A stretch of 64,000 bases of DNA from the NCBI GenBank assembly GCA_910585725.1, contig CAJUFA010000010.1:21450-85449 (forward strand), given 5' to 3'. The notes under the pieces were generated by a model. It was not told where the DNA came from. It searched no databases and was given only the letters and a program-made list of their open reading frames with translations. The position numbers were made by a program, and so were the translations under genes. Every line of letters starts with the position of its first letter. Within the stretch, counting starts at the first letter, position 1. This stretch comes from an uncultured Dorea sp. Lineage in GTDB: Bacteria > Bacillota > Clostridia > Lachnospirales > Lachnospiraceae. Of the stretch, positions 11,315 to 50,703 are shown in pieces.

Positions 11315-11326
11315 ATCGGGAGAATG

Positions 11327-12022
11327 CTATCCGTTCAGAAGGGAGTCGATAAGTCTTGACGCCTCGCTTCGTGTAAGAGTATCAGGATTCCATGTGGGCT
11401 GTGTATTTTTTCGACGGCATAGTTTTGTTAAAAAGGCAAGCTGCTTATCGGTTGCCGGCTGTTGTTTTTTTGCTTTGTATGTAAGCTGAACCGGTTGGAA
11501 CAGCATGGGATATTCGGCTTCAAAGTAATGCGCGAGAGTCTGGTATAATTTAGCTGTGGCAAGCGCGTCGTGATAGGCTCTGTGGGCCGATTTATTCTCG
11601 ATCTGATAATATGCGCACAGGTCGGATAAGCTTTTCGAGGGAAGAGAAGCCAGTGCGGTCTGTGCGATCTTGAGGGTGTCTATCCCGGATTTTTCGAAAG
11701 AAAGTCCGCAGCGGGAGGCGCCCGTTTTCATGAAACTATAGTCAAATCCTACGTTATGCCCGATCAGCACATCGTCTTCGCAAAATTTCAGGAAATCAGA
11801 AATTACTTCTGAACCTGATCGGGCGTCTGCAACCATCTCGTTCGTAATTCCGGTTAGATTGGTGATTGTATCAGAAATAATTTCCGTTGGGCAGATAAAT
11901 TCCATAAAACGTTCGGCAACATGCCCGTCTCTTACCTTAAGAGCTCCAATCTCTATGATTTCATTTATCTGAGGATTTAGTCCCGTTGTCTCCACGTCAA
12001 AAGCGATATAAGATTTTAACAT
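11327..12022 (-). CDS. DEDDh 3'-5' exonuclease (DnaQ/epsilon-like) with a short C-terminal extension
   Basis: Exo motifs AFDVETTGL, GHNVGFDYSFM and HRAYHDALATA. The start is set at the ATG preceded by GGAGG (MLKSYIAFD...). Confidence 0.8.
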   Translation of the reverse strand: MLKSYIAFDVETTGLNPQINEIIEIGALKVRDGHVAERFMEFICPTEIISDTITNLTGITNEMVADARSGSEVISDFLKFCEDDVLIGHNVGFDYSFMKTGASRCGLSFEKSGIDTLKIAQTALASLPSKSLSDLCAYYQIENKSAHRAYHDALATAKLYQTLAHYFEAEYPMLFQPVQLTYKAKKQQPATDKQLAFLTKLCRRKNTQPTWNPDTLTRSEASRLIDSLLNG

Positions 12023-25898: not shown

Positions 25899-26184
25899 AA
25901 TTATAAGTCAAGAAACGAAGTATTATTCCAAAAGGTAAATGGTCAATCTTGAAAAGCAAGAAATCTGGGCAGATGTTACAGCCTTCCAATACAGCCTGTA
26001 TCCGATTTAAAGAACCCCTTTGATTTGCTGTTTTGGCGGTCCTGCGTCCTCATCAAAATCCGATGGAAACAAAATGTAGTACACCTAAGGAGCTGAAAAT
26101 CAGTCTGTCGGTTAATTAGGGCAATTTCTATTAAGATTATTTTAGGAGGTTATGTTATATTAAGTGAGGAAAGGAGTGTCATAT

Positions 26185-26601
26185 ATGAACAATAACACAG
26201 CTGTAAAAAAGGTAGTGGATTATATAGAAACACATATTGACGAGGATCTGTCACTTGATAAAATAGCAAACGCATTAAATTATTCAAAATTCTATATAGC
26301 CAGAATTTTTACTGAAGAAACGAAATGTACGGTTTATAAATACATACAAGGACGTAGATTGACTTTGGCAGCTCAAAAACTTGTGGAAACAGAACAGCCT
26401 ATTGTTGAAATCGCTTATGAAGCACATTATGATTCACAGCAAGCTTTTACATTGGCTTTTAAACAATTTTATGGATGTACGCCTAAAATTTATCGGAAAA
26501 ATGGTGTATTCTATCCGAAACAATCAAAGATAAGTATGATGAGTTCGCTTGGTGGATATAGATTTATGTATTATTTTGCAGGAGGTAAATTAGCAGCATG
26601 A
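26185..26601 (+). CDS. stand-alone AraC/XylS-family (MarA/SoxS-like) transcriptional activator ending in ...KLAA
   Basis: Double HTH_18 ([21 protein letters not shown] and [28 protein letters not shown]) with no ligand domain. The start is at the ATG after GAAAGGAG. Confidence 0.75.
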
Positions 26602-27188
26602 GTACAATTCCCTATGTTATTGAGCAAACAAGCCGAGGAGAACGAAGTTATGATATTTTTTCAAGGTTATTGTCTGACAGAATTGTTTTTTTGGGAGAAG
26701 AAGTAAGTGATGTTTCAGCAAGTTTAATTATTGCACAAATGTTATTTTTAGAAGCACAAGACCCAGAAAAAGACATTCAGTTATATATAAATAGTCCAGG
26801 CGGTTCTGTTTCAGCGGGCTTTGCTATTTATGATACAATGCAGTATATCAAATGTGATGTTTCAACGATATGTATAGGACTTGCCGCTAGTTTTGGAGCT
26901 TTTTTATTGGCGGGAGGTGCAAAAGGAAAACGTATTGCTTTGCCCAATGCAGAAATTATGATACATCAGCCTGCTATTCATGGCAACGGAATTCAAGGGC
27001 AGGCAACTGATATAAAAATTACATCTGACCATATACAAAAAAGCAAAAAACGTCTTAATGCTATTTTAGCTGATAATATAGGTAAAAGTATTGATGAGGT
27101 CGCTATTGCTACAGAACGTGATAATTATATGACGGCAAAAGAAGCAATGAATTTTGGGTTGATTGATAAAATTATTGATATGCGTTGA
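26598..27188 (+). CDS. clpP: ATP-dependent Clp protease proteolytic subunit (additional ClpP paralogue in an AT-rich island)
   Basis: Full-length ClpP with an intact triad context: GLAASFGAF (Ser), MIHQP (His) and TERDNYM (Asp). Its ATG overlaps the upstream TGA (ATGA). Confidence 0.9.
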
Positions 27189-27211
27189 CTGTTATACAGA
27201 AATGATAATTT

Positions 27212-27312
27212 GGATTTAAAGCAAAAAATCCTAATCAATATCATTACAAAGGTGAAAATATAAAGTCGGTAAACTTGTGAAATTAAGCTGCAGTTTATCG
27301 GCTCTGTTTTTT
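27212..27312 (+). repeat. right copy of the patchy direct repeat; also a probable clpP terminator
   Basis: Blocks GGATTTAAAG, CAATAT, GGTAAAC and GTTTATCGGC, followed by CTCTGTTTTTT. GGTAAAC/GTTTATC can pair as an imperfect stem. Confidence 0.35.
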
Positions 27313-27400
27313 CATAAGAGTTTAAGGCGAACGCCTGCCATATAAAAAAACGATGTTATGGTGGGCGGTATTGCTATGCTCGAAAAGACTTAACAGACAC

Positions 27401-27437
27401 TCTCCAGACCTGTTTTAAAGTTTGGAGGGATTTTTTA
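27401..27437 (+). terminator. orphan rho-independent terminator in a 0.5-kb non-coding gap
   Basis: TCTCCAGAC-ctgttttaaa-GTTTGGAGG followed by ATTTTTT. No intact ORF ends in front of it. Confidence 0.5.
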
Positions 27438-27703
27438 TGTCCTTTTTTTGGGTAGTAATCTATCTGCTCATGCAACGCAGATTTTATCCATACATAGCAT
27501 ATCGGGGATTAGCAGGAAGCCAGTTAAAAAAGTTTCCGTCTACGTCACGCTACTTCTCACCATGAAACCAGAAGTAGAATCTCCACTTAAAAGAAGAAAA
27601 AAATTTTTTATCAACTATCTTTTTAGGGGTTTCAGTTGTTAATATATATAGGCGCGTGAAAAAGAGGAAAAAGATTGATGTACGTCAGGAAGGAGGAGAA
27701 TAA

Positions 27704-28207
27704 GTGAATCCGGACTTTTTACTGGTAGAAAAAATGAAAACGGGAAACAGCAAGGCAGGAGAAGAGTTTATCAAAAAATATTATCCTTCCATATATCAAT
27801 ATTGTATTTTGCATATCCATGACAGAAATTGCGCGGAAGATATGACGCAGGAAACGTTTCTGAGATTTTTTGAAACGATAGATACGTATACAGAAAGGGG
27901 AAAAGTGAAGAACTATTTATACTGTATTGCCGGAAACTGTATCAAGAATTATTTCAAAAAGAAAAAAGAAGTACTTCCGGGAGAGATGAAGGATATACCG
28001 GAAGAATGCGACGGGATGGAGCTTAGGCTGGATATTGAGCGGGCGGTGGACAGTTTGCCGGAGGATTTGAAGGAGATTGCGATTCTATTCTTCTTTCAGG
28101 GGTTGAAGCAGCGTGAGATTGCGGATCTGTTAAATATTAATGTACCGCTGATAAAGTACCGTATTCGGGAAGCAAGAAAGAAATTATCGGAATATTTAGG
28201 GAGGTGA
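27704..28207 (+). CDS. ECF-type RNA polymerase sigma-70 family factor
   Basis: Region 2 (DMTQETFLRFF) and region 4 (LKQREIADLLNINVPLIKYRIREARKKL). GTG start follows GGAGGAG; an internal ATG is also possible. Confidence 0.8.
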   Translation: MNPDFLLVEKMKTGNSKAGEEFIKKYYPSIYQYCILHIHDRNCAEDMTQETFLRFFETIDTYTERGKVKNYLYCIAGNCIKNYFKKKKEVLPGEMKDIPEECDGMELRLDIERAVDSLPEDLKEIAILFFFQGLKQREIADLLNINVPLIKYRIREARKKLSEYLGR

Positions 28208-37070: not shown

Positions 37071-38324
37071 ATGTACGACCGTTTTAAAGGAAGGGTGTAT
37101 AGTGTAGGAGATGGATTTTGTTACGAAGGAATAATTAAAGAAAATACTTCCAATAGCTATCATTTTGTGATAGATTGTGGCAGTCAGGCGCCTAAAAACA
37201 GGAAGCAAAAAGTAGGAGAATTATCAAGTACAACAGAATGTAATAGTCGGTTGAAGGAAATAACAGATGAGATAGTTAGTAATGGAGATCATATTGATTT
37301 GTTTATATTAACACATCTGCATGTCGATCATTATAACGGGATTAAGATGCTTTTTCAAAGCGGGATTCCGGATATGATTATAATGCCTTATTTATATCCG
37401 GAAGAAAGATTATGCTTAATAATAAATAACGATATGGATGACGATGATTCCCTATTTTTGGCAGATCCGTATACTACTGTTTTGAATTTGGCAAAAGAAA
37501 GTAATCCCGACGCGAAATTAATTTTGTTTAGAGGAAATGTAGACAACGTTGACGATGATGATCTTGATGACAGGCAGACCGACGACTCAATCGTATGGGG
37601 AGTACCATATGAAGATTCTGAATATATATTGGAGGTGGAAGATATCAGACTGTCTGACGCGGAAGTAGTAAGCGTCACCCAAAAGAATATAGAAATTTTT
37701 GACGGTATTTGGGTATTTAAATTTTTTAATTTGGAAATAGATAAAGCTGATATTGATGTATTAAAAAAAATAGTCGGAAAATTGACGGCAAAACACTTGT
37801 ATAACAATATTGCTAGCCTAAAAAAACAGTATAAAAAGATTGCTAAAAATCTTTTTAATGATTTTAATAATACTTCAATTGTTACATATCATGCTCCGTT
37901 TCATAATTATAGTAGATGTGGGACTTTAATAACCGGAGATATTGACTTGAATCATAATATTGTTGATTCGATATTGGATTATTTTAATAACGAAATGGAT
38001 AAAATCGGACTGTTTTCTATACCGCATCATGGATCTAAGGCAAATTGGAATAAAAAATTGATTGATAGCGGGGTTTTAAAAAGTAGCATATGTTTTGCTT
38101 CTACACATAATTATTACTCAAATAGAATGATGCCTGATATGATGTCTGATCTGAGATGTCAAAATATTTGTGCGTTAGTAGTAGATGAAAATCGTTTTAG
38201 TGAAATTGAGCAGATTATTGATAATTCATATTCTCCATACATTTTAAATAAAAGTCATAAAAACTATAAAATAGAGGCTTTGTTAGGAAAAGAGCCTGTA
38301 AGAATGATTATAATACGGCCATAA
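37071..38324 (+). CDS. MBL-fold metallo-hydrolase, ComEC/Rec2-type motif set, with acidic insertions
   Basis: Motifs HFVIDCGS, THLHVDHYNG (HxHxDH), TYHAP, LITGDID and IPHHGSKANW. Poly-Asp inserts DMDDDD and DNVDDDDLDD. AT-rich. Starts 15 nt after the kinase stop. Confidence 0.7.
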   Translation: MYDRFKGRVYSVGDGFCYEGIIKENTSNSYHFVIDCGSQAPKNRKQKVGELSSTTECNSRLKEITDEIVSNGDHIDLFILTHLHVDHYNGIKMLFQSGIPDMIIMPYLYPEERLCLIINNDMDDDDSLFLADPYTTVLNLAKESNPDAKLILFRGNVDNVDDDDLDDRQTDDSIVWGVPYEDSEYILEVEDIRLSDAEVVSVTQKNIEIFDGIWVFKFFNLEIDKADIDVLKKIVGKLTAKHLYNNIASLKKQYKKIAKNLFNDFNNTSIVTYHAPFHNYSRCGTLITGDIDLNHNIVDSILDYFNNEMDKIGLFSIPHHGSKANWNKKLIDSGVLKSSICFASTHNYYSNRMMPDMMSDLRCQNICALVVDENRFSEIEQIIDNSYSPYILNKSHKNYKIEALLGKEPVRMIIIRP

Positions 38325-38518
38325 AAATTGGGCCGATGTTTGAGGTTATTCTCACAAGTCTGTCAATTCTACTTATGGAAAGCCAGATGTGCCGTGCCCA
38401 AAATGATTGTTTCCTGTGATTTGTTGTTCTGTGTTCTGGGGAATTACTTACAGAAAAATTAAAAAGAGTCGATAGTAGTCATAGATATATTTGAAATAAC
38501 TATTTGATCGGAGGATTT

Positions 38519-39724
38519 ATGATAGAGTTAAGAGGAAAATATAACGAAGCAAAAGTTTTTACCGACGTAGTAGACGAAGCGTCTATTTCGCAGGTGCTTC
38601 TTTTACTTAATCAAGAATTTGTGGTTGGAAGTAAGATTAGACTTATGCCGGATATTCACGCCGGATCTGGATGTACAATCGGTACTACTATGACTATTAC
38701 AGATAAGATCGTACCTAATCTGGTAGGGGTAGATATCGGATGCGGCATGGAAGTTATTAAGATTAAAGAAAGAAATATGGAGTTACAAAAGCTTGATAAA
38801 TTGATTTATGAAAGGATTCCGTCTGGATTTAATATTAGAGAAAAAGCTCATAGATATTTTAAGGAAATTAATCTGGACGACTTATATTGTTATAAACAGA
38901 TAGACATAAGACGGGCCGAGAAGAGCATGGGGACATTGGGCGGTGGTAATCATTTTATAGAAGCTAATAAAGATAGCGAGGGGAATATTTATATCGTAGT
39001 GCATTCAGGCAGTCGCCATTTGGGATTGGAAGTTGCCAAATATTACCAAGAGGAAGGCTATAAGAAATTGAATGGATCGACACAAAAAGATATCGATGCT
39101 TTGATTATGGATTTGAAAGCACAGGGAAGACAGAAAGAGATTCAGAAAAGTATTGCTGCGTTGAAAAATACAAAGAGAACTAATATTCCTAGACAATTGG
39201 CGTACGTATCGGATGAATTGTTCTTACAATATATACATGATATGAGAATCGTTCAAAATTATGCCGAATTGAATCGAAAAGCAATGATGGATGAAATTGT
39301 AAAAGGAATGAAATTACATATTGTAGATCAATTTACAACGATTCATAATTACATAGATACAGATTCTATGATCTTAAGAAAGGGAGCTGTATCTGCAATG
39401 GATGGAGAAAAGCTGATTATACCTATCAATATGAGGGATGGTTCCTTAATTTGTATTGGGAAAGGAAACGATGAGTGGAATCAATCTGCGCCTCATGGAG
39501 CAGGGAGATTAATGAGCAGGTCGGCAGCGAAAGAATCATTTACGGTTTCAGAATTTAAGAAACAAATGGAAGGTATTTTTACCACGTCTGTTAACCGGGA
39601 TACTCTGGACGAATGCCCGATGGCATACAAAGGGATTGATGATATTGTAAATAACATAGATGAAACGGTTGATATTAATAGAATTATAAAGCCAATATAT
39701 AATTTTAAAGCGAGTGGGGATTAA
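38519..39724 (+). CDS. rtcB: RtcB-family RNA 3'-phosphate/2',3'-cyclic-phosphate ligase
   Basis: Motifs MPDIHAGSGCTIG, GGGNHFIE, VHSGSRHLG, TIHNY and SAPHGAGR (nucleophilic His motif) are all present. The start is at the ATG after GGAGGA. Confidence 0.85.
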   Translation: MIELRGKYNEAKVFTDVVDEASISQVLLLLNQEFVVGSKIRLMPDIHAGSGCTIGTTMTITDKIVPNLVGVDIGCGMEVIKIKERNMELQKLDKLIYERIPSGFNIREKAHRYFKEINLDDLYCYKQIDIRRAEKSMGTLGGGNHFIEANKDSEGNIYIVVHSGSRHLGLEVAKYYQEEGYKKLNGSTQKDIDALIMDLKAQGRQKEIQKSIAALKNTKRTNIPRQLAYVSDELFLQYIHDMRIVQNYAELNRKAMMDEIVKGMKLHIVDQFTTIHNYIDTDSMILRKGAVSAMDGEKLIIPINMRDGSLICIGKGNDEWNQSAPHGAGRLMSRSAAKESFTVSEFKKQMEGIFTTSVNRDTLDECPMAYKGIDDIVNNIDETVDINRIIKPIYNFKASGD

Positions 39725-39801
39725 TGATTATAGAACAGGGGATAATATGATGAATAATTTCATGAATATATGATGTTGGATGTCAGAAAGGGATTTTTAC
39801 T

Positions 39802-40200
39802 GTGATAGAGATTGATTATTTTATATCATTACCACAATTGCAGAAATTATCTGATTTTAAATTACGCCAGTTAATGTTGTGTGCAGAGTGTGAGATGAAA
39901 GAAATTACCCGTGCAAAATGTACGTATTATATGTGTGTTATGGAAAGCAATAGAAGAAATTACGATAAATGGCCGTGTGAAATGGATGTTATTTCGTATG
40001 TAGATATATATGATGAAGATAATAATGTGATTTTTGGATATGGCGATCATTATACGATGTATGTTATTAAGGGGGCGGTGTTGGTATATGACAATCAATG
40101 GATTCCATACTTATTTGGCAGCAATGAGGAAGATCCCATGTGTATTTGGAAATATTTCTGTGTGTCTAGAGATGGGATTGTCAGGTATAATGACGCTTAA
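39802..40200 (+). CDS. Cys-rich hypothetical protein (132 aa)
   Basis: GTG-initiated ORF in the same AT-rich island. Contains CAECEMKEITRAKCTYYMC. No family recognised, and coding status rests on length and context only. Confidence 0.45.
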   Translation: MIEIDYFISLPQLQKLSDFKLRQLMLCAECEMKEITRAKCTYYMCVMESNRRNYDKWPCEMDVISYVDIYDEDNNVIFGYGDHYTMYVIKGAVLVYDNQWIPYLFGSNEEDPMCIWKYFCVSRDGIVRYNDA

Positions 40201-41163: not shown

Positions 41164-43141
41164 CTCTATCTATGGAAAACTTGCGTTTACAAATCTTAAG
41201 AATAATCGAAAGACCTATGTCCCCTATATACTCACATCAATCCTGACGGTGATGATGTATTATATTATGGATGCATTGTCGCGAAGTTCCAGCATCGTCG
41301 ATCCAAGTCTTCAATCGGTTTTGTTGTGTGCAGTGGGGGTCATCATGATATTTGCCGTCATCTTTCTGTTCTATACGAACAGTTTCCTGATTAAGCGAAG
41401 GAAGAAGGAGATAGGCGTCTATAATATTCTTGGCATGGGGAAAAGGCATATCGCGCAGATGCTTGTAGTTGAAACCGTGGTTACGGCGGTAATCAGCATA
41501 GGCGCAGGACTGGTCTTTGGAATCATCTTCAGTAAATTCATGTATTTGGCGCTGATTAAGCTTCTGCACTATGACGTACGGATGGAATTCGAGGTATCAG
41601 GGACGAGTATTCGATATACATTGATCCTGTTTGTGGCGATATTTCTGATGACGCTGGTCTTTAATCTGTTTCAGATTCAGGTTTCTAATCCGGTGGAACT
41701 GCTTCACGGAGGAAATCAGGGGGAAAAGGAGCCAAAGACAAAACGGATTATGACGGTCTTTGGAGTGATCATGCTGGCGGTCGGATATTATATTGCGCTA
41801 ACGGTAGAGCAGCCGCTGGCGGCGATTCAGGCATTTTTCGTAGCGGTGGTCTGCGTAATTCTCGGCACCTATGCGCTGTTTACGTCCGGAAGCATCGCTA
41901 TTCTTAAGGGGCTTCGGAAGAATAAGAAGTTCTATTATCAGGCAAAGAATTTCAGCGCGGTGTCCGGGATGATCTATCGGATGAAGCAGAATGCGGTGGG
42001 ACTTGCCAATATTTGTATCTTAAGTACGATGGTGCTGGTTATGATCTCTACAACCATTTCCCTCTATGTAGGAATGGAGGATGTGTTAAGGACGAGATAT
42101 CCGAGAGAGTTCGAGGCGAAGACGAACGTCTCCTCGCCGGAGGCGGATCAGGCGATTGACAGGATCATTGAGGAAGAGATGGCGGACGCAGGAGTGGAAC
42201 CGAAGTCTGTGCTTCGGTATCATGACGGGAGTATGACGGCTGTCAGGCAGGAAGACGGGTTTCAATTGCTGCAGTTTGGAAACTATGCAGAAGAGGATAC
42301 GACGGAGATCATATTGATTCCGCTCGAGGATTATAATCGCATGGAGGGCGAAGAGGGATCTCTTGCGCCGGACGAGGTCTATGCATATAGTACAGGCGAA
42401 GACTGGGGCGGAGATTCTGTCAAGATAGGAGATAAGACATACCGTGTGACAAAGGAACTTAAGAATCTTCAGATTGATCCGAAGAACGCGCAGAATATGA
42501 TGTCCAGTTATTTTTTCATCTTCTCCGACGCAGGGCAGATACAGGAATTGCTGGAAAATGTCTATGAAGACAGCGGTATGCAGGAAGATTGGGTAGAACA
42601 GGTATCTACAATCAATTATCGGGTGGTTTTTGATCTGGAAGGAGACGAAGAGGATTGCCTGAATGTGATGCGGGCCATACAGTCCAGAGTTGAAGGTGAA
42701 GTCAACGCCGCTTTCTGCGAGAGCAGAGAGCTTAGCAGGGAAGAATTCTATTACTTATACGGCGGGCTGCTTTTTATCGGTATTTATCTTGGAGCTTTAT
42801 TTCTGATGGCGACGGTGCTGATCATGTATTACAAGCAGATTTCAGAAGGGTATGACGACAGAGAGCGGTATCAGATTATGCAGAAGGTGGGAATGAGTAA
42901 GCGCGAGGTCAAGGGAGCCATAAGAAGTCAGGTACTTCTGGTATTTTTTCTGCCTCTTGTAACGGCAGTCGTTCATATTACCGTGGCGTTTGACGTGATC
43001 ACAAAGCTTCTGGCGGTACTGAACCTGACGAATGTTTCTTTATTCCTTTCATGTACGATCGCGACGGTAATCGTGTTCGCCGTATTCTATGGCATCGTAT
43101 TCTCGCTGACGGCAAGGGAATATTATAAGATTGTGAATTGA
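41147..43141 (+). CDS. BceB-like FtsX-domain permease (10 TM helices with a large extracellular domain)
   Basis: 664 aa. Motif LAFTNLKNNRKTY, two FtsX-type 4-TM bundles and a ~200-aa soluble insert. The exact start is uncertain (GTG at 41147 or TTG at 41156). Confidence 0.8.
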   Translation: MTGLSSSIYGKLAFTNLKNNRKTYVPYILTSILTVMMYYIMDALSRSSSIVDPSLQSVLLCAVGVIMIFAVIFLFYTNSFLIKRRKKEIGVYNILGMGKRHIAQMLVVETVVTAVISIGAGLVFGIIFSKFMYLALIKLLHYDVRMEFEVSGTSIRYTLILFVAIFLMTLVFNLFQIQVSNPVELLHGGNQGEKEPKTKRIMTVFGVIMLAVGYYIALTVEQPLAAIQAFFVAVVCVILGTYALFTSGSIAILKGLRKNKKFYYQAKNFSAVSGMIYRMKQNAVGLANICILSTMVLVMISTTISLYVGMEDVLRTRYPREFEAKTNVSSPEADQAIDRIIEEEMADAGVEPKSVLRYHDGSMTAVRQEDGFQLLQFGNYAEEDTTEIILIPLEDYNRMEGEEGSLAPDEVYAYSTGEDWGGDSVKIGDKTYRVTKELKNLQIDPKNAQNMMSSYFFIFSDAGQIQELLENVYEDSGMQEDWVEQVSTINYRVVFDLEGDEEDCLNVMRAIQSRVEGEVNAAFCESRELSREEFYYLYGGLLFIGIYLGALFLMATVLIMYYKQISEGYDDRERYQIMQKVGMSKREVKGAIRSQVLLVFFLPLVTAVVHITVAFDVITKLLAVLNLTNVSLFLSCTIATVIVFAVFYGIVFSLTAREYYKIVN

Positions 43142-43153
43142 ACAAATTATATG

Positions 43154-43200
43154 ATGCGCAGAGATATGGAATAGACTTTATCTTCTGCGCATGATATAAT
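43154..43200 (+). promoter_or_regulatory. long stem-loop after bceB overlapping a possible promoter
   Basis: ATGCGCAGA (43154-62) pairs with TCTGCGCAT (43184-92), with inner GATA/TATC pairing. There is no T-run. TAGACT (43172-77), a 17-nt spacer and TATAAT (43195-200) could drive the cupin gene. Confidence 0.4.
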
Positions 43201-43225
43201 TCATACTGTAAGACAGCAGTACAGC

Positions 43226-43337
43226 GAAATATAGGAAGCAAAATATAGGAAGCGAAATATAGGAAGCAAAATATAGGAAGCAGAATATAGAAAGCAGAAT
43301 ATAGAAAGCAGAATATAGAAAGCAGAATACAAAAAGC
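43226..43337 (+). repeat. 8 x 14-bp head-to-tail tandem repeat RRAATATAGRAAGC
   Basis: Units in order: GAAATATAGGAAGC, AAAATATAGGAAGC, GAAATATAGGAAGC, AAAATATAGGAAGC, then AGAATATAGAAAGC three times, then AGAATACAAAAAGC. The array ends 13 nt before the cupin ATG. Confidence 0.95.
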
Positions 43338-43350
43338 GGAGGAGAAAACC

Positions 43351-43695
43351 ATGACAAAAGCGGGAGAAAGAGAAGTAATAAAAGCAGAACACGTAGGCGG
43401 AGGAGCCGGATTCATTATGAAGGAAGCGCTGCTTAGTGTGCAGGAGCTGGGGGATCATTGCAGAATGTTCAGCAAAGTAACTATTCCGCCCAATTGCGAG
43501 CTTGGTCATCATGAGCATCATGGCGAGACGGAGACCTATTACATCCTGAGCGGGACAGGTATGTACGATGATAATGGTAAAGTCCTCCAGGCGGAAGCAG
43601 GAGACGTTTTCTTATGTAAAGACGGCGACGGTCACGGCATGAAGAATACCGGAACAGAGGATCTGACTTTCATAGCTTTGATTTTGAAGAAGTAG
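43351..43695 (+). CDS. cupin-domain protein
   Basis: 114 aa with cupin motifs GHHEHHGETETYYILSG and GDGHGMKNTG. GGAGGAG SD. Confidence 0.8.
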   Translation: MTKAGEREVIKAEHVGGGAGFIMKEALLSVQELGDHCRMFSKVTIPPNCELGHHEHHGETETYYILSGTGMYDDNGKVLQAEAGDVFLCKDGDGHGMKNTGTEDLTFIALILKK

Positions 43696-43741
43696 AAAAT
43701 TCGCGCTGGAAGTAATTTTTTCAGTTTTTCTGCTTCTGGCA

Positions 43742-43771
43742 TTGCCATTCATAATCAAACAATGGTATAAT
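43742..43771 (+). promoter_or_regulatory. sigma-A promoter with extended -10 in front of the large unknown-function gene
   Basis: TTGCCA (43742-47), an 18-nt spacer, then TGgTATAAT (43763-71). Confidence 0.55.
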
Positions 43772-43777
43772 CAGAAG

Positions 43778-46700
43778 ATGAATGCCAGGCAAGGTATGTC
43801 TGTGAATAAGCAACGAAAGAAGCAGGTGTCAGACTTGAAAAATAAAATCCAGAAATTTTCCAAAGGAGATTTTCAGTTATCACAACCTGATGTCATATTT
43901 GATGAGACCAATCTGGTACTCATTATCGGAGAAGGGGAAGTATATCGGGGGAATTTTACAATTAAGGCAGAAGGCGGAAGGAAGGTACGAGGGCTGGTCT
44001 ACTCGTCTTCTTTTCGTGTGCATTTCAGGAATTCAGGGTTTGACGGAAATCCGGCAAAAGTAGAATTCACATATGACGGGAAAGGACTCAGACCGGGGCA
44101 TGTGGAAGACGGTATCTTCACGGTGGTGTGCAACGGAGGGGAATATGAGTTATCAGTTACCGCGATTATCGAGAAACCGTATGTTATGACTTCTTATGGT
44201 AAGGTGCAGAGTACGGATGATTTCCGTAAGCTGGCGATCAAGGATTTTTCGGAAGCAGGGAGGCTGTTCCGTTCCAGAGAGTTCTATGAGATTCTGAAGT
44301 ATGAGAACGAGCGTATCTTTTATCTGTATGATAATATGAGGAAATGGTTCCTGGGAGATCAGGCTCTGGAAGAATTTCTGGTGGGGATCAAGCAGAAGGA
44401 GTGTCTCTTCCTGACGCTTCCCGGAGAAGGAATGCTCTTTGAAGATCTGGCAGAATCGACGAAGGGGACGCTTACGATCGTGAAGAATACATGGGGATTC
44501 ATGCCGATTCATATAGAACCGGAAGGGAAGTTTTTAAAGGTTCAGCGTTCGGAGATCAGCACGGAGGATTTCATCGGGAATGCTTATGAGATCGAATATG
44601 TGGTACGGCCGGAGTTTCTTCATGGGGGACGTAACTTTGGCGCGCTCAGATTCATTACGCCCTACGAGACTCTGACGTATGAGATTGAAGTGCTGCAGAA
44701 CCAGAAGGAATACAGCGAGAACCGCAGGATGCCGGAACTCCTGGTCGCACAGATCCTGAAGGAATATATCGGATATGTGGCGGGAAGGATCGAACTGGAT
44801 AACTGGATGGAAAGCGCGGTTGAGAAGATGATATCCCTTCGGAAGCTGAATCCGCAGAGCGAGATGTATCAGTTGATGCAGGCGCACGTATATCTGGTGG
44901 GGAACAGAACGGAAGAGGCGAAATGGATCCTTGAGAATTACAATTATAACCGGTTTGCGATCGGAAAGGATCCGATGACAAACTGTTATTATCTATATCT
45001 GACGGCGTTGGTGCGGGGGAAGAAGAACCATTCGGAACGTGTGTTGGACGAAGTCGGGAAGACTTATATGAGACATCAGGATTCCTGGCTGTTATTATCC
45101 ATGCTTCTGGATCTGGATTCAAGATATAAGACGCCGTATAAAAGGATTGAATTACTGGAACAGCAGTATCAGTACGAGATGCACGGCGTGCTGTTTTACT
45201 TGGAGGCATACCAGTGTTACCAGGAGAGACCGACGCTTTTAAAAAAGTTAGGACGCTTCGAGATCCAGGTGCTGAATTTTGCGTCAAAATATCGTTTGAT
45301 GACCAAAGAACTGGCTCTGTATGTGGCGAATTTTGCCAGTCAGCAGAAACAGTACAGCGATTCTATGTTCCGGATTCTGGACCGTATTTATAAAATATAT
45401 GACGAACCTATGATATTAAATACGATCTGTACTTTGTTGATTCGGGGAAATAAAGTACAGAAACGATATTTTGTATGGTATCAGCGTGCGGTGGAGGCAG
45501 AGCTTAAGATTGCGCAGCTCTATGAATATTATATGATGACGGTGGATGAAGAAAGTGTAAAGGGACCGCTTCCAAAAGTGATCCTGCTTTATTTCATGCA
45601 TGGAAATTCGCTTAATTATAAGAAGGCGGCGTTATTATATGCGAATCTGGCAATCTATGAGGAGCAGGCGGGAGATCTCTATCTGAATTACCGCGAACAG
45701 ATGGTAGCGTTTACATGGGATCAATTGATGAAGAGGCATATCACGGAATCATTACGTGTTTTGTACAAGCGTTTCTGTAAACCGGAGGAGATGTCGGCGG
45801 ATCGTATGGAGGCCATGCGTGATATCTGCTATTCTTATATGGTCTCAACCAAGGCCGTGAATATGAAGTGTGTTCTGGTGATCGAGAAAGACGGGGAGAT
45901 CCGGCAGAGGGTTCCTTATGACGGAGAAGAAGGGACAGTAATACGGTTATATGATAAAGAGTCCAGAGTCGTATGGGAATCTGTAGAGGGAAGACATTAT
46001 ACAGATTCTATAGTGTACGAGACCCGGCGTCTTTTCTATGAGCCGCGTTTTGTGGAACTATGCCGTAAGTATGCCGCGACAACCGGCGTATGGGAGCAGG
46101 AGAATGAAAAAGAAAAGCCGACGTTCGATGGGGTGAAAGAAAAAGGGATTAACGCATTCGACGAGAAGGATGTATTTCGGCTGTGCAGCAGGAAGATTCG
46201 GGACGATAACTACGAGGAAGATGAATTCCTTAGTTATCTGAGTTTCGAACTGTTCAAGAGGCAGCAATTTGACAAGGTAACCCTGATGTATCTTGCAAAT
46301 TATTATTGCGGTCCTACAAAGAATATGAAGATGCTTTGGAAGGTTTTGAAGGAAAATGAGATTCCTGCCTACAAGATCAGCGAACGCATTATTACACAGA
46401 TGCTGTTCTCGGAGAATCTGCTCCAGGAAGAGTGTATTTTTGAGGACTACTATCGGTCGGATAATGTCTATTTCCGTCTGAAACAGGCATATCTTGCGTA
46501 CGTTTCCAGAGAATACGTGGTATGCGCAAGGGATCTGGAATCAGTTGTATTTGATATTGTTGCGAGCGAATGTGACGAGAAGGAAGACCTGCCGGATATC
46601 TGTAAGATCGCGCTTCTTAAATATTATTCGGATCATGATTATACGGCGGCGCTTGAGGTGGTGCTTCATCAGGTATTAAGAGAGATGTGCGAGAAGCAGA

Positions 46701-47131
46701 TTGTGTTCCCCTACTATCTGAAATATAAGGAAGAGTGGTTAAGGGAACTGCAGCTCTATGATAAAGTCATGGTTTCGTACCAGGCAAGACCGGGAAGCAG
46801 AGTGACGCTGTATTATAAGATGAAACACGGAATTCGCGATGAATTGGGGTATCAGAACGAGGTTATGATGCCTGTATATGAGAATCTATATGTAAGACAG
46901 TTTGTGCTGTATAATGATGAGTCTATCAATTATTATTTCATTGAGACCAGGGGAAAAGAGGATATTATAACGGAGAAAGAGATCCTGAAGAACGAAAGAG
47001 AAGTGACGGAGTCGGGCAAATACGGACGCCTGAACCGTATGGCGGATATGGCGACTATTTCACGTAAGAAAGCGATGATGGAATATAAAGAAGAGGAGAT
47101 TATGGCGAAAAGACTTTTTAAGGTCTATTAG
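43778..47131 (+). CDS. very large (~1118 aa) hypothetical protein: N-terminal beta-sandwich-like domains + long helical-repeat body
   Basis: Long uninterrupted ORF with host-like composition. The start is ambiguous. ATG 43778 lies ~7 nt after the -10 box and would be leaderless; ATG 43796 has only a weak SD; the TTG at 43742 overlaps the promoter and is rejected. Confidence 0.75.
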   Translation: MNARQGMSVNKQRKKQVSDLKNKIQKFSKGDFQLSQPDVIFDETNLVLIIGEGEVYRGNFTIKAEGGRKVRGLVYSSSFRVHFRNSGFDGNPAKVEFTYDGKGLRPGHVEDGIFTVVCNGGEYELSVTAIIEKPYVMTSYGKVQSTDDFRKLAIKDFSEAGRLFRSREFYEILKYENERIFYLYDNMRKWFLGDQALEEFLVGIKQKECLFLTLPGEGMLFEDLAESTKGTLTIVKNTWGFMPIHIEPEGKFLKVQRSEISTEDFIGNAYEIEYVVRPEFLHGGRNFGALRFITPYETLTYEIEVLQNQKEYSENRRMPELLVAQILKEYIGYVAGRIELDNWMESAVEKMISLRKLNPQSEMYQLMQAHVYLVGNRTEEAKWILENYNYNRFAIGKDPMTNCYYLYLTALVRGKKNHSERVLDEVGKTYMRHQDSWLLLSMLLDLDSRYKTPYKRIELLEQQYQYEMHGVLFYLEAYQCYQERPTLLKKLGRFEIQVLNFASKYRLMTKELALYVANFASQQKQYSDSMFRILDRIYKIYDEPMILNTICTLLIRGNKVQKRYFVWYQRAVEAELKIAQLYEYYMMTVDEESVKGPLPKVILLYFMHGNSLNYKKAALLYANLAIYEEQAGDLYLNYREQMVAFTWDQLMKRHITESLRVLYKRFCKPEEMSADRMEAMRDICYSYMVSTKAVNMKCVLVIEKDGEIRQRVPYDGEEGTVIRLYDKESRVVWESVEGRHYTDSIVYETRRLFYEPRFVELCRKYAATTGVWEQENEKEKPTFDGVKEKGINAFDEKDVFRLCSRKIRDDNYEEDEFLSYLSFELFKRQQFDKVTLMYLANYYCGPTKNMKMLWKVLKENEIPAYKISERIITQMLFSENLLQEECIFEDYYRSDNVYFRLKQAYLAYVSREYVVCARDLESVVFDIVASECDEKEDLPDICKIALLKYYSDHDYTAALEVVLHQVLREMCEKQIVFPYYLKYKEEWLRELQLYDKVMVSYQARPGSRVTLYYKMKHGIRDELGYQNEVMMPVYENLYVRQFVLYNDESINYYFIETRGKEDIITEKEILKNEREVTESGKYGRLNRMADMATISRKKAMMEYKEEEIMAKRLFKVY

Positions 47132-47151
47132 TATGAGAGGAGGGGAGGATA

Positions 47152-48435
47152 ATGAAGAAAGACGTAATTCTGGGTTATGATCTGAATGAGAAGTATTGTC
47201 AGATCAGTTTCTACGACGAGACGAAGGAAGAACCAGAGACGATGGAGACAGAGACAGATAATTATCAGATTCCCCTGATGCTGGGTTATTATAAAGAAAA
47301 ATGGGTTTACGGAAAAGAGGCAAAGAGGCTGGCCGCTCTTCAGGAAGGTATCACTGTGACGGATATTTTTGAAAAGGCTGTCCGGCAGGAGAAGGTAAAA
47401 GTCGGCGCAAGAAAACGTGACGGGGTCTGGCTGCTGGCCAAATTTATTAAATTGACGCTTGAGGAGTTTGAGGAGATAAGCTTTATTACGTTTTCCGTAC
47501 CTTATACGAATATTGATATGTCTAAGATGTTAAAAGGGATTGGCCATTATCTTGGAATACCGAAGGAGCGGGTCTGTGTCCAGGACTATAAAGAAAGCTT
47601 CTGTCAGTATATGTTCTATCAACCAAAGGAATTGTGGCAATATGAATCCGCGCTGTTTTATTGCGACGCCCAGGAGATCCGGGCTTATATGCTGAGAAGA
47701 CTGAATACGATCGGCGTGAAGGAGCGGGAATTATTCGTGACGGTGGAAGAGGTTGCAAACGCGCAGATGAGAGAATTGGCGGCGATCTATCCGATCTTGA
47801 ATAAGGATCAGGAGCAGGATGCGGACGACAGGTTCAAGACTTTTATACAGAGTGTCTTCGAGAAAAAGGTGGTTTCTTCGGTGTATCTGACCGGAGAAGG
47901 ATTTGAAAATAACTGGTATCCCAATTCATTAAAAGTGCTGTGTAACGGAAGACGGGCGTTTATCGGCAATAACCTGTACAGCAAAGGCGCGTGCTATACT
48001 TCTATAGGAAAATGTAAGGAATATCATGACAGCCCTGTTTATCTGGACGAAACGAAGATGACGGAGCAGATCTGTCTGCGTATGCGGGTCAACGGACAGG
48101 AAGGTTGGTATCCGATCGTATCATGGGGAACCCATTGGTATGAGGCGGACGGACAGTGGGAAGTTATCCTTGAGGATACTTCGGATATAGAGGTTCATGT
48201 AGAGACGCTGGCGGGAGAGGAACTCCAGGTGGAGAAGGTGTCTCTTGAAGGGCTTCCGGACAGGAGAGACTATTCCCTGCGGGTACAGATTGAAGTTCTG
48301 TTCGTGGATGAGAAAACCTGCAGGCTTTCGTTCAGGGACGTGGGATTCGGTGAGTTCTTCCCGGCGACAGGATTTCATGTGGAGAAGATAATTCATTTAG
48401 GAGGAAGCAATGGGCAGTTTAATTCTATGTCATAG
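47152..48435 (+). CDS. divergent Hsp70/actin-fold protein (NBD + beta-sandwich SBD, no helical lid) with degenerate nucleotide-binding loops
   Basis: Collinear by eye with DnaK: [62 protein letters not shown], and C-terminal [25 protein letters not shown]. Strong SD GGAGGGGAGG. Confidence 0.7.
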   Translation: [427 protein letters not shown]

Positions 48436-49192
48436 AAAAAGAGCAAGACAGCCTTATGTGATAGCCAGAATCCATATGCGAGTCTATACGATAGAAGAAT
48501 TGTGTTATTATATATGCAATAATCTCTATCTGATTGATTACACTCTGGTGAACAGGCAGTTATGCAACTGGATCGACAAAGAGTTGGAATTGTCGGAACT
48601 TGCGGAGCAGCTCAGGGAAGAACTGCGGCAGAATTGTACGATGGAACAGTTTGTACTGACGATATTGAGAGAATCCACAATCTACGCTTCGGGTGATATC
48701 AATAAGATACAGGGGATCCTGGAGCACCTGCAGAATCTGCGGGATGTGGAGCGCATGAAGTACAAGGCGGACAGTCTGCAGAGAAGCGGGGAATATGAGA
48801 CGGCGATATTGGTCTATCAGTCTATTATTAACAGTGAGTGGGACAATTCGGTGAGTAAGTTGTTCTATGGAAGAGTCTACGCGAGCCTGGGGGCGGCGTA
48901 CGGACAGCGATTTCTCTATGAAGAGGCGGCAAGGGTATATCTGGAGGCGTATCGTATCTGCGGAGATATGGAACTTCTGAGGACGTATCTGTATTGCTGT
49001 TACCGCGCGCTGCCGGAGGATCAGTATGTAAAGATGCTGTCGGGTAATTCGACGTTCCTGAATATGGATTCGGCCATGAAGGAGGATATCCGGGAGATTC
49101 AGAGGGGCATTGACGTGGACATACCGGAGGAGCAGTTTGAACAATGGAAGAAGGAATACCGTAAGATCAATAAGAGCCGTATTGCGGGGTAA
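48410..49192 (+). CDS. TPR-like helical hypothetical protein
   Basis: 260 aa. GGAGGA SD, and a 26-nt overlap with the upstream gene. Helix pairs resemble TPR (GEYETAILVYQSII and SLGAAYGQRFLYEEAARVYLEAYRI). Confidence 0.65.
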   Translation: MGSLILCHRKRARQPYVIARIHMRVYTIEELCYYICNNLYLIDYTLVNRQLCNWIDKELELSELAEQLREELRQNCTMEQFVLTILRESTIYASGDINKIQGILEHLQNLRDVERMKYKADSLQRSGEYETAILVYQSIINSEWDNSVSKLFYGRVYASLGAAYGQRFLYEEAARVYLEAYRICGDMELLRTYLYCCYRALPEDQYVKMLSGNSTFLNMDSAMKEDIREIQRGIDVDIPEEQFEQWKKEYRKINKSRIAG

Positions 49193-49204
49193 GATGAACG
49201 CCGG

Positions 49205-49233
49205 AATACCAGGATCAGACGTCTGGTATTTGC
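49205..49233 (+). terminator. weak stem-loop after the three-gene module
   Basis: AATACCAG-N10-CTGGTATT followed by TGC. The U-tract is poor. Confidence 0.35.
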
Positions 49234-49269
49234 AGAAGTCAATGAAAGAAGAAAAGGAGAGGAAGATAT

Positions 49270-50703
49270 ATGAGTTACGATAAGTATAACAGTCCGCTTT
49301 CGGAGCGGTACGCGAGCAAGGAGATGCAGTATGTATTTTCACCGGATAAGAAATTCAAGACCTGGAGAAAGTTATGGATTGCCCTCGCGGAGACAGAGAA
49401 AGAGTTAGGGCTTGGGATTACGGACGAGCAGATCGAAGAATTAAAAGCACATGCAGAGGATATTAACTACGAAACGGCGAAAGAGAGAGAGAAGATCGTA
49501 CGCCATGACGTGATGTCCCATGTGTACGCGTATGGGGAGCAGTGTCCCAAGGCCAAGGGAATTATCCATCTAGGAGCAACTTCCTGCTATGTGGGAGATA
49601 ATACGGATATGATCATCATGTCCGAGGCTCTTGAGATTGTAAGAAAGAAACTGGTGAATGTAATCTCTGAGCTTGCGAAATTTGCCGATGAATATAAGGA
49701 ACTTCCGACTCTTGCCTTTACGCACTTTCAACCGGCGCAGCCGACGACCGTGGGGAAGAGGGCGACTCTCTGGATGCAGGAATTCGCTATGGATCTGGAG
49801 GATCTGGAGTATGTGAAGGGAACTCTTAAACTTCTTGGCTCGAAGGGGACGACAGGAACCCAGGCAAGTTTCCTGGAACTTTTTGAAGGAGATCAGGAGA
49901 CGATTGATAAGATTGATCCGATGATCGCCAGGAAGATGGGATTTGAGACTTGCTATCCGGTATCCGGACAGACATATTCACGGAAAGTGGACGCCAGGGT
50001 CTTGAATGTATTGGCGGGAATTGCGGCAAGCGCCCATAAGTTCTCCAACGACATCCGTCTGCTCCAGCATCTGAAGGAGGTAGAGGAGCCGTTTGAGAAG
50101 ACCCAGATCGGTTCTTCCGCTATGGCGTATAAGAGAAATCCTATGAGAAGCGAGAGAATCGCGTCTCTTTCCAGATATGTAATGATCGACGCGCTGAATC
50201 CGGCGGTGACTTCAGCGACACAGTGGTTTGAGCGTACGCTTGATGATTCGGCGAACAAACGTTTAAGCGTGCCGGAGGGATTTCTTGCGGTTGACGGGAT
50301 TCTGGATCTGTGCCTGAATGTTGTGGACGGACTTGTAGTGTATCCGAAGGTGATTGAGAAGCGATTGATGTCAGAGCTTCCGTTCATGGCGACGGAGAAT
50401 ATCATGATGGATGCGGTAAAGGCCGGCGGAGACCGTCAGGAGCTTCATGAGAGGATTCGTGAGTTGTCTATGGAAGCGGGAAGGAATGTAAAGGAGAAAG
50501 GATTGGATAATAATCTCCTTGAGCTTATCGCCGCCGACCCGGCGTTCAATCTGACGCTGGACGAGCTAAAACAAACTATGGATCCGGCAAAATATACAGG
50601 ACGCGCGTCCATCCAGGTGGAGGCATATCTTAGAGATGTGATCCGTCCCCTTCTTGAAAAGAATGAAGACGTACTTGGGATGAAAGCGGAGATTCATGTG
50701 TAA
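49270..50703 (+). CDS. purB: adenylosuccinate lyase
   Basis: 477 aa with the fumarate-lyase signature GSSAMAYKRNP, and N-terminal SPLSERYASKEM typical of PurB. Confidence 0.9.
   Translation: MSYDKYNSPLSERYASKEMQYVFSPDKKFKTWRKLWIALAETEKELGLGITDEQIEELKAHAEDINYETAKEREKIVRHDVMSHVYAYGEQCPKAKGIIHLGATSCYVGDNTDMIIMSEALEIVRKKLVNVISELAKFADEYKELPTLAFTHFQPAQPTTVGKRATLWMQEFAMDLEDLEYVKGTLKLLGSKGTTGTQASFLELFEGDQETIDKIDPMIARKMGFETCYPVSGQTYSRKVDARVLNVLAGIAASAHKFSNDIRLLQHLKEVEEPFEKTQIGSSAMAYKRNPMRSERIASLSRYVMIDALNPAVTSATQWFERTLDDSANKRLSVPEGFLAVDGILDLCLNVVDGLVVYPKVIEKRLMSELPFMATENIMMDAVKAGGDRQELHERIRELSMEAGRNVKEKGLDNNLLELIAADPAFNLTLDELKQTMDPAKYTGRASIQVEAYLRDVIRPLLEKNEDVLGMKAEIHV

Follow-up and report, generated by a model that had tools for sequence, protein, structure and literature searches.

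A conserved Lachnospiraceae operon encoding a lid-less, degenerate Hsp70, a tetratricopeptide-repeat partner and a large probable scaffold

Introduction

The described systems closest to the locus studied here belong to the Hsp70 superfamily. In Hsp70 proteins, lobe IIB of the nucleotide-binding domain (NBD) holds the adenosine and binds exchange factors. In Ssz1, the atypical Hsp70 of the yeast ribosome-associated complex (RAC), the substrate-binding domain (SBD) is truncated and has no functional lid. A different kind of departure is found in CnuD and CnuCD of the type III CoCoNuT systems, which have an Hsp70-like NBD and SBD with degenerate ATPase motifs and helical-repeat domains that are joined to them or adjacent, while what marks a CoCoNuT system is its McrB-like GTPase, together with a CnuC/McrC homologue and nucleases of the HEPN or another type (PMC11090510). 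Here we analyze an operon of three tightly coupled open reading frames (ORFs), genes 1 to 3, found at positions 43742-49192 on the + strand in the ORF list of a 64,000-nucleotide stretch of DNA from an uncultured Dorea sp. (the whole of this stretch is called the window below), whose middle gene encodes a degenerate Hsp70 without a lid.

Few gut bacteria are as abundant or as relevant to health as the Lachnospiraceae, and many of their conserved genes have no known function. The present operon occurs in hundreds of species, and its housekeeping setting, together with the cost of carrying about 1800 codons, argues that it very probably does something important. An initial annotation of the window had read its products as a protein of beta-sandwiches and helical repeats with beta inserts, a lid-less degenerate Hsp70 and a protein resembling tetratricopeptide repeats (TPR), had seen neither a catalytic motif in gene 1 nor an HPD J-domain motif in any of the three, and had supposed that their homologues might be catalogued only as domains of unknown function (DUFs). 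These readings are borne out by the analysis below: the layout of gene 1 agrees with the domains of its AlphaFold2 model, the Hsp70 assignment is recovered by Foldseek, hhalign, a motif census and the model, the profile of gene 3 matches TPR proteins in the PDB, HPD is absent from all three proteins, and Pfam lists the genes under DUF5717 and DUF5716, with a sub-threshold TPR match for gene 3. The checks proposed with that annotation gave a gene order that is kept in 160 loci wherever the contig allows, with genes 2 and 3 fused in many lineages, and Pfam searches in which genes 1 and 2 are catalogued under DUF families alone.

Results

Gene 2 is a divergent Hsp70

Gene 2 (47152-48435, + strand) encodes a protein of 427 amino acids that is 100% identical to a protein of a Dorea sp. 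metagenome-assembled genome, by which the window is matched to a Dorea species of the mouse gut. Pfam assigns it to PF18980 (DUF5716_C; 2.9e-106, 355 bits against a cut-off of 34.7) over residues 112-416, leaving residues 1-111, the N-terminal part of the NBD, outside the match. Pfam's Hsp70 model does not detect the protein, and a single-sequence phmmer search of PDB sequences gave chance matches alone. The relationship emerges from structure and from deep alignments. The AlphaFold2 model (predicted local distance difference test, pLDDT, 74.5; predicted template modelling score, pTM, 0.71) has 362 Foldseek matches in the PDB at E <= 1e-3, the best at E of about 1e-17; the top 50 are all members of the Hsp70 superfamily or entries containing them (DnaK, Hsc70, BiP, Ssb, Ssz1, Sse1), and the alignments span both the NBD and the beta part of the SBD (SBD-beta). 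Several of the top structural matches are constructs described as truncated or as lacking the alpha part (SBD-alpha).

The same relationship is seen when the 191-member gene 2 family is aligned by hhalign to residues 1-520 of E. coli DnaK (90.7% probability, E 1.2e-6). A shallow profile had given one weak match to the N-terminus of DnaK among PDB sequences (E 1.7), and a shallow hhalign comparison had aligned residues 4-82 only, so the full reach to DnaK 1-520 came with the 191-sequence alignment. This alignment takes in the N-terminal strand-loop (DLNEKYC in gene 2, DLGTTNS in DnaK) and the ITVPAYF/IINEP region, and the SBD-beta signature of the family, LxGLPxRP...VxDxGFGE, falls on LDGINPAPRG...AKDKNSGK at DnaK 454-490. 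Between the two domains lies a hydrophobic linker, VYLDE at 296-300 (V or L, then F or Y, then L in the family; VLLLD in DnaK). These comparisons show that gene 2 is a divergent Hsp70 in which the actin-like core of the NBD, the hydrophobic linker and the sandwich of SBD-beta are all still present. An actin-like filament protein of the FtsA/MreB type was rejected on the top structural matches, all of them Hsp70-superfamily proteins or entries that contain one, and on the SBD-beta signature.

The SBD-beta of the model comprises eight strands (305-415) and the chain ends 12 residues beyond the last of them, so that gene 2 has no helical lid. The NBD is also reduced, to about 290 residues compared with 383 in DnaK. 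By alignment and predicted secondary structure about 21 of the roughly 94 missing residues map to lobe IB and most of the others to lobe IIB, where the model has just two helices (206-211 and 220-237) at a site that takes up roughly 78 residues in DnaK. Gene 2 therefore appears to be without lobe IIB, as far as alignment and modelled secondary structure locate the deletion.

The model also carries a hint about conformation. Its root-mean-square deviation (RMSD) in Foldseek is 11-13 Å from 4b9q, 4jn4, 5tky and 5e84, entries labelled as ATP-bound or open, and likewise from other full-length structures of DnaK states (7kru, 7krv, 7ko2, 5nro), compared with 26-28 Å from the ADP-bound, post-hydrolysis or GrpE-bound entries 2v7y, 5obv and 4ani. 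This pattern suggests, though only as a hint, that the two domains of gene 2 may be constitutively docked.

The ATP site is degenerate throughout the family

To ask how much of the ATP site is left we used a census of its motifs in 191 family members. In the window protein the phosphate-loop motifs DxGTTxS and DxGGGTxD are replaced by DLNEKYC and YCDAQEIR, and Q144 stands at the position of DnaK E171. The same holds across the family: the GTT positions of the first loop are occupied by C, G or N, then mostly by D, N or E, then mostly by D, E or K; the GGG positions of the second loop carry mostly charged or polar residues; and the E171 position is Q or I. Gene 2 has thus very probably lost ATP binding. 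Some parts of the site have nevertheless been kept. The equivalent of DnaK D8 is acidic (D or E) in 189 of the 191 relatives, the equivalent of D194 is acidic in 147, and G248, one glycine of the adenosine motif, is invariant.

These residues are what an alternative explanation would build on, namely that the operon encodes a working, specialised chaperone after the model of HscA-HscB or HscC-DjlC, with gene 2 as an ATPase that uses non-canonical residues, gene 3 as both co-chaperone and substitute lid and gene 1 as a client or a platform for recruiting clients. The Hsp70 lineage of gene 2 is clear, and the VFL/VYL linker that it has retained is the element that transmits allostery in Hsp70. 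We nevertheless consider an active chaperone unlikely: both glycine-rich phosphate loops are replaced family-wide, mostly by charged residues, the window protein has a Tyr at the D194 position, the lid is absent and lobe IIB apparently so, and the operon encodes no J-domain HPD motif.

A conventional Hsp70-family gene was seen near the module at one distant locus, L163 (18354-20051, - strand; 562 amino acids; phmmer against DnaK 8.6e-86), where it lies about 15 kb away; none was seen near the module elsewhere.

Gene 3 is a TPR protein paired with gene 2

Gene 3 (48410-49192, + strand; 260 amino acids) has three conserved parts in an alignment of 31 sequences: an N-terminal domain, a central region and a C-terminal WKxEYR motif. 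The N-terminal domain reads MGxLILCxGKxAxxPY...VYSIEELCYY..NN, with E29 and E30 invariant, and the profile of the 31 sequences found no detectable relative for it in the PDB. For the central region the same profile matches designed consensus TPR proteins as well as natural ones (E 1e-32 to 1e-9); the consensus proteins give per-repeat values of 3e-4 to 1e-3, and SPINDLY, a bacterial kinesin-light-chain-like protein, Sti1 and SGTA are found at 1e-9 to 1e-5. The match covers profile positions of about 113-200, the length of two repeats. Single sequences give TPR matches in Pfam that stay below threshold. At the level of profiles, gene 3 can be said to carry a genuine two-repeat TPR unit. The idea that gene 3 might be the split-off lid of the Hsp70 is not supported, as its detectable repeats are TPR.

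The link between genes 2 and 3 can be followed through a set of 160 related loci, half of them from species-representative genomes, where gene 2 is 61-98% identical, and half from metagenomes, where it is about 25-30% identical to the Dorea gene 2. The 80 metagenome loci were retrieved with proteins in which genes 2 and 3 are fused, and cluster into 43 groups at 80% identity. The order gene 1-gene 2-gene 3 is kept in all 160 as far as the contigs reach, with gene 3 always directly after gene 2 or fused to it; in the metagenome loci too, DUF5717 stands directly upstream where the contig extends, and gene 3 is directly downstream or fused.

Among the 150 best representatives at 50% identity, 7 are fusions of genes 2 and 3. 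They are 703-737 amino acids long, and towards the C-terminus they match gene 3 (E 1e-16 to 4e-30). A further search found about 50 fused proteins among the 120 matches listed, one of which (P0495) has 1796 member sequences. With so many members, on many contigs, the fusions must be real and not frameshift errors, and gene fusion is classic evidence for physical or functional coupling. Gene 2 has in gene 3 an obligate TPR partner.

Gene 1 encodes a large protein of beta-sandwiches and solenoids

Gene 1 (43835-47131, + strand), counted from a TTG start at 43835, encodes 1098 amino acids and is a full-length DUF5717 protein, matched by two Pfam families, PF18984 (1.8e-206, 688 bits) and PF18983 (1.8e-94, 317 bits), each with a cut-off of 25. 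The AlphaFold2 model (pLDDT 78.5) was made from an upstream ATG at 43796, and the domain numbering given here counts from it. An immunoglobulin (Ig)-like beta-sandwich (33-137) is followed by helices (140-199) and a second beta-sandwich (213-301); the middle of the protein consists of two alpha-solenoids (308-678 and 750-984) separated by a beta domain (680-745); and the chain closes with a beta domain (990-1065) and helices (1074-1110).

In Foldseek, the tandem sandwiches match Ig-like domains of the ciliary central pair, the SPD-2 domain of CEP192 and titin Ig; the first two we take to be ASH/PapD-like domains. The helical parts match TPR-like superhelices in entries of the PAF, SKI, IFT-A, NatA/NatE and spliceosome complexes, the chains in question being presumably Ctr9, Ski3, an IFT-A TPR subunit, Naa15 and SYF1. 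There is no enzyme among these matches. A comparison of the model with viral structures gave generic Ig-like matches alone (BACON, PKD; template modelling score about 0.08), and a search of PDB sequences gave one marginal TPR match, to BepA (E 0.029). Among 33 sequences less than 70% identical the conserved positions are nearly all G, F, Y, L or W, and include no cluster of Cys, His, Asp or Ser. Taken together, these results show an array of Ig-like beta-sandwiches and TPR-like solenoids in which no catalytic residues are conserved, and gene 1 is read as a probable non-enzymatic scaffold. No transmembrane segment was found in any of the three proteins.

Distribution and inheritance of the operon

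At least 582 stretches in a collection of species-representative genomes match the operon, and a profile, searched against 1.84 billion representatives, finds 1277 clusters at 50% identity (E <= 1e-3). Where the matching proteins carry a taxon name they are all from Lachnospiraceae or from bins labelled no finer than Eubacteriales. The genera include Dorea, Sporofaciens, Claveliimonas, [Clostridium] hylemonae, Anaerocolumna, Anaerosacchariphilus and Coprococcus, and the titles of genome records add other Lachnospiraceae such as Faecalicatena and Faecalimonas. The operon looks vertically inherited and has so far been seen in Lachnospiraceae only.

Three records bear other names, namely Bacteroidaceae bacterium, Parabacteroides distasonis and Clostridium sp. 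CAG:343 (L030, L034 and L035). Each holds a Dorea-like copy of the module, with 73-74% identity in gene 2 and purB downstream as in the Dorea-clade loci, and they are probably mis-binned or mislabelled contigs.

A link to mobile elements was considered and rejected in both forms. No plasmid matched the module. Five records titled 'UNVERIFIED Bacteriophage sp.' carry it, and two of them, both from human faecal samples (L162, MT835486.1; L163, MT835719.1), hold the whole four-gene form described below. The flanks of these two encode RarA, ValS, FeoB, UvrD and a chemoreceptor (MCP), which identifies both examined records as fragments of bacterial chromosomes, and on these two of the five the phage link is rejected.

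These observations bear on a second alternative, in which the operon would be an anti-phage or conflict system with a degenerate Hsp70-like sensor and helical repeats, as CnuD is in type III CoCoNuT. The resemblance is real in so far as the Hsp70 NBD/SBD units described in CoCoNuT operons are degenerate too and are linked to HEAT-like repeats (PMC11090510), and large repeat proteins are common as defence sensors. However, Pfam finds no McrB-like NxD GTPase, no CnuC (McrC/DUF2357) and no HEPN domain, other nuclease or effector in the operon or in the neighbours examined at several related loci, and PADLOC has no significant match for genes 1-3. The host-like composition of the operon, its stable housekeeping synteny, its apparently vertical inheritance, its absence from plasmids and the mislabelled nature of the 'phage' records all point the same way, and we regard a defence function as highly improbable. 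NCBIfam and PHROGs likewise gave nothing significant for the three proteins, and a literature search under the DUF and PF names turned up nothing relevant to DUF5716 or DUF5717.

A fourth gene in distant lineages

In 34 of the 43 distant lineage groups gene 3 is followed by a fourth gene, the product of which has about 395 residues with coiled-coil segments on either side of a transmembrane hairpin, and belongs to no Pfam family. Examples are found at L088 4360-5700, L122 12124-13302, L086 12206-13444, L166 (Anaerocolumna aminovalerica) 10210-11406 and L162 11002-12180. A hidden Markov model (HMM) of this protein has no match in the window, nor in any of the 80 loci of the Dorea clade, and one abundant fusion of genes 2 and 3 is not followed by the gene either. 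Its absence from some lineages means that the core module consists of genes 1-3, with the membrane protein as a frequent accessory.

The fourth gene is one argument for a third view, which concerns the role of the operon and is compatible with the reading preferred below: a lineage-specific machine that would serve division, morphogenesis, sporulation or the assembly of the envelope, with the scaffold and the Hsp70 relic organising other proteins at the membrane. The large Ig-like and TPR interaction surfaces without enzymes would fit such a machine, as would its family-wide spread over the stretches and clusters counted above. On the other side, no division, sporulation or envelope gene is among the conserved neighbours of the module, and the membrane partner is missing from the Dorea-clade loci. 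We hold this assignment of role to be rather doubtful.

Neighbouring genes

The flanks of the module are housekeeping genes that vary by lineage: purB, purF, purC, purA, valS, the trp operon, ABC transporters and an aminotransferase. Among the conserved neighbours there is neither a DnaJ nor a GrpE gene. Downstream of gene 3, where the initial annotation had placed it, purB starts at 49270 (to 50703). As a member of the module, purB was rejected, since in close relatives purF or an amino-acid ABC transporter lies between it and gene 3.

The genes purB, purF, purC and purA recur beside the module even where gene 2 is about 25-30% identical. Such pur-flanked loci include, besides the window (49270-50703), L004, L014, L102, L117, L120, L124, L130, L154 and L164. 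This recurrence may reflect a gene order passed down by inheritance and not a link in function.

Expression signals and composition

The features that the initial annotation had placed around the three ORFs were mostly recovered. The three coupled ORFs are present on the + strand, and the promoter ahead of them, of the sigma-70 type, lies at 43742-43771 with a -35 box TTGCCA, an 18-nucleotide spacer and an extended -10 box TGgTATAAT (a score of 11 out of 12). Most of 18 related loci, aligned over their upstream regions, keep both the TTGC core of the -35 box and the TGnTATAAT box. The promoter falls within the longest possible ORF of gene 1, and position 43742, being in the -35 box, holds no start codon.

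The length of about 1118 residues first given to gene 1 was not upheld. In most of the 18 loci the leader block GCAACGAAAGAAGCAGGTG is conserved, with the Shine-Dalgarno sequence AGGTG (43824-43828) inside it, and so is a TTG start codon (ATG in one locus), while the in-frame ATGs further upstream in the window are not conserved. The N-terminus read from TTG 43835, MKNKIQKFSKGDF, fits the family form MKEKIExFAKGEF, which is shared even by distant homologues, and homologues are mostly 1095-1100 residues long. Leader, start codon, shared N-terminus and lengths thus agree, and gene 1 most likely runs from 43835 to 47131, where its stop codon ends.

Gene 2 follows after a gap of 20 nucleotides, which contains the Shine-Dalgarno sequence GGAGGGGAGG at 47139-47148, ahead of ATG 47152. 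Gene 3 overlaps gene 2 by 26 nucleotides, as it does in the loci of 75 relatives, and its Shine-Dalgarno sequence GGAGGA (48400-48405, ahead of ATG 48410) lies inside the 3' end of gene 2, an arrangement that indicates translational coupling of gene 3. Both spacings and both ribosome-binding sites had been annotated correctly. The last 12 residues of gene 2, LGGSNGQFNSMS (48396-48435), vary little or not at all within the Dorea clade. This conservation may reflect double coding, given that the segment overlaps the ribosome-binding site and the first codons of gene 3.

The hairpin that had been noted between gene 3 and purB is real (49204-49231, + strand; 10 base pairs, -14 kcal/mol, z = -1.98), but it is not a proper terminator: it has no U-tract and was not called by a terminator scan, so that it is not canonical and at best a weak or partial terminator.

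The host-like composition noted earlier was confirmed, with a GC fraction of 0.44-0.48 over the operon. Two AT-rich islands of the window, at 26000-28000 and 38000-40000, have 0.34-0.35 compared with 0.44-0.49 around them. No Rfam RNA family was found in 43100-49400. Upstream of the operon a 14-nucleotide tandem repeat, AGCAAAATATAGGA, occurs in 7.6 copies with 94% match at 43223-43329, in the leader between a promoter-like site at 43172-43200 and a cupin gene (ATG 43351). Every unit of the repeat has a GGA or GAA core, and the array could be a protein-binding or regulatory one.

Discussion

The proposed complex

The reading that we prefer, with a probability of roughly 55%, is that the operon encodes a soluble, non-enzymatic complex in which gene 2 and its TPR partner form an ATP-independent adaptor on the gene 1 scaffold. 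In this complex the Hsp70 relic would no longer cycle with ATP. By analogy with Ssz1 in the ribosome-associated complex, it would instead act as a permanently docked peptide clamp or adaptor which, together with gene 3, would hold a segment of a partner or client on the scaffold.

Two conserved segments of the operon's own products are candidates for being bound in this way. One is the N-terminus of gene 3, GSLILCHRKRAR, which to judge from its letters has a hydrophobic core and basic flanks, the type of Hsp70 ligand that DnaK prefers; the other is the motif MKxKIxxFxKGxF at the N-terminus of gene 1, a part that is poorly modelled. In most lineages the fourth protein, with its coiled coils and transmembrane hairpin, would then tether the complex to the membrane. 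A housekeeping, membrane-proximal role in assembly is our guess.

Several points weigh against the proposed complex and should be set beside it. The acidic residue at the D8 position and the invariant G248 leave room for an unusual form of nucleotide or metal binding. Given the medium confidence of the gene 2 model, the docked conformation is no more than suggested. The pseudo-substrate idea is speculation, drawn from the sequence character of the two segments. Finally, since the fourth gene is missing from the Dorea clade, whatever role it has elsewhere may not apply to the operon of the window.

A broader version can be offered only tentatively, as a possibility with clearly less than an even chance: a family-specific machine in which an Hsp70 has been turned into an ATP-independent clamp, is permanently paired with a TPR protein on an Ig/TPR scaffold of 1100 residues, is tethered to the membrane in most lineages and serves a core process of the Lachnospiraceae. 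If this is true, a bacterial Hsp70-TPR partnership has evolved independently of the eukaryotic system of EEVD motifs and TPR co-chaperones. The core process could then be division, morphogenesis or the assembly of a multi-enzyme complex, the last of which receives a weak hint from the pur neighbourhood.

The placement of DUF5716 in the Hsp70 superfamily is the first structural handle on this operon. It adds a bacterial Hsp70 that is without lid or ATP motifs, apparently without lobe IIB, and joined to a TPR partner by gene fusion. It offers chaperone biology an evolutionary experiment in which a motor has turned into a scaffold, and microbiome biology a well-defined target of three or four proteins.

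Comparison with known systems

Of the described systems, the yeast RAC offers the closest functional parallel. As we read gene 2, Ssz1 (6sr6, 7x3k) resembles it in being an atypical Hsp70 that serves as a stable structural subunit and not as a cycling foldase, and it is among the Foldseek matches of gene 2 (E 3e-15, 6sr6 included); entry 6sr6 was deposited as showing a pseudo-substrate bound in the SBD. The two differ in their nucleotide-binding domains, Ssz1 having a full, four-lobed NBD that binds ATP whereas gene 2 has lost its phosphate loops and apparently lobe IIB, and in their partners, which are the J-protein Zuotin in one case and a TPR protein in the other. The operon proteins have neither an HPD motif nor a Pfam DnaJ match, and a pairing of the Ssz1-Zuotin type is therefore not what is found here.

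With DnaK, HscA and HscC, gene 2 has its ancestry in common through the NBD and SBD-beta, and it has kept their hydrophobic linker. It differs from them in lacking the lid and apparently lobe IIB, in its degenerate ATP motifs, in an operon that provides no partner of the DnaJ or GrpE type, and in being always paired with DUF5717 and a TPR protein.

The combination of a TPR protein with an Hsp70-family protein recalls Hop/Sti1, SGTA, CHIP and Tah1, and the gene 3 profile does find Sti1, SGTA and Tah1 through their TPR domains (E 1e-5 to 1e-4). However, TPR domains of the Hop/CHIP type clamp a C-terminal EEVD, whereas gene 2 ends in ...GQFNSMS; its C-terminus, HLGGSNGQFNSMS, is not of the EEVD type, and this tail is conserved within the Dorea clade only. 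Gene 3 differs further from the Hop/CHIP type in having about two repeats and an unrelated N-terminal domain, so that the TPR similarity is a generic one.

CnuD and the gene 2 module, compared by description, have in common that both occur in fused and in split versions (PMC11090510). Their contexts differ, with a defence island for CoCoNuT and housekeeping genes here. In Pfam, gene 2 is a member of DUF5716 (PF18980) and gene 1 of DUF5717 (PF18983, PF18984), entries that carry no annotation of function or fold. We rate the operon, catalogued otherwise only under these DUFs, as a further form of the non-canonical Hsp70-based systems.

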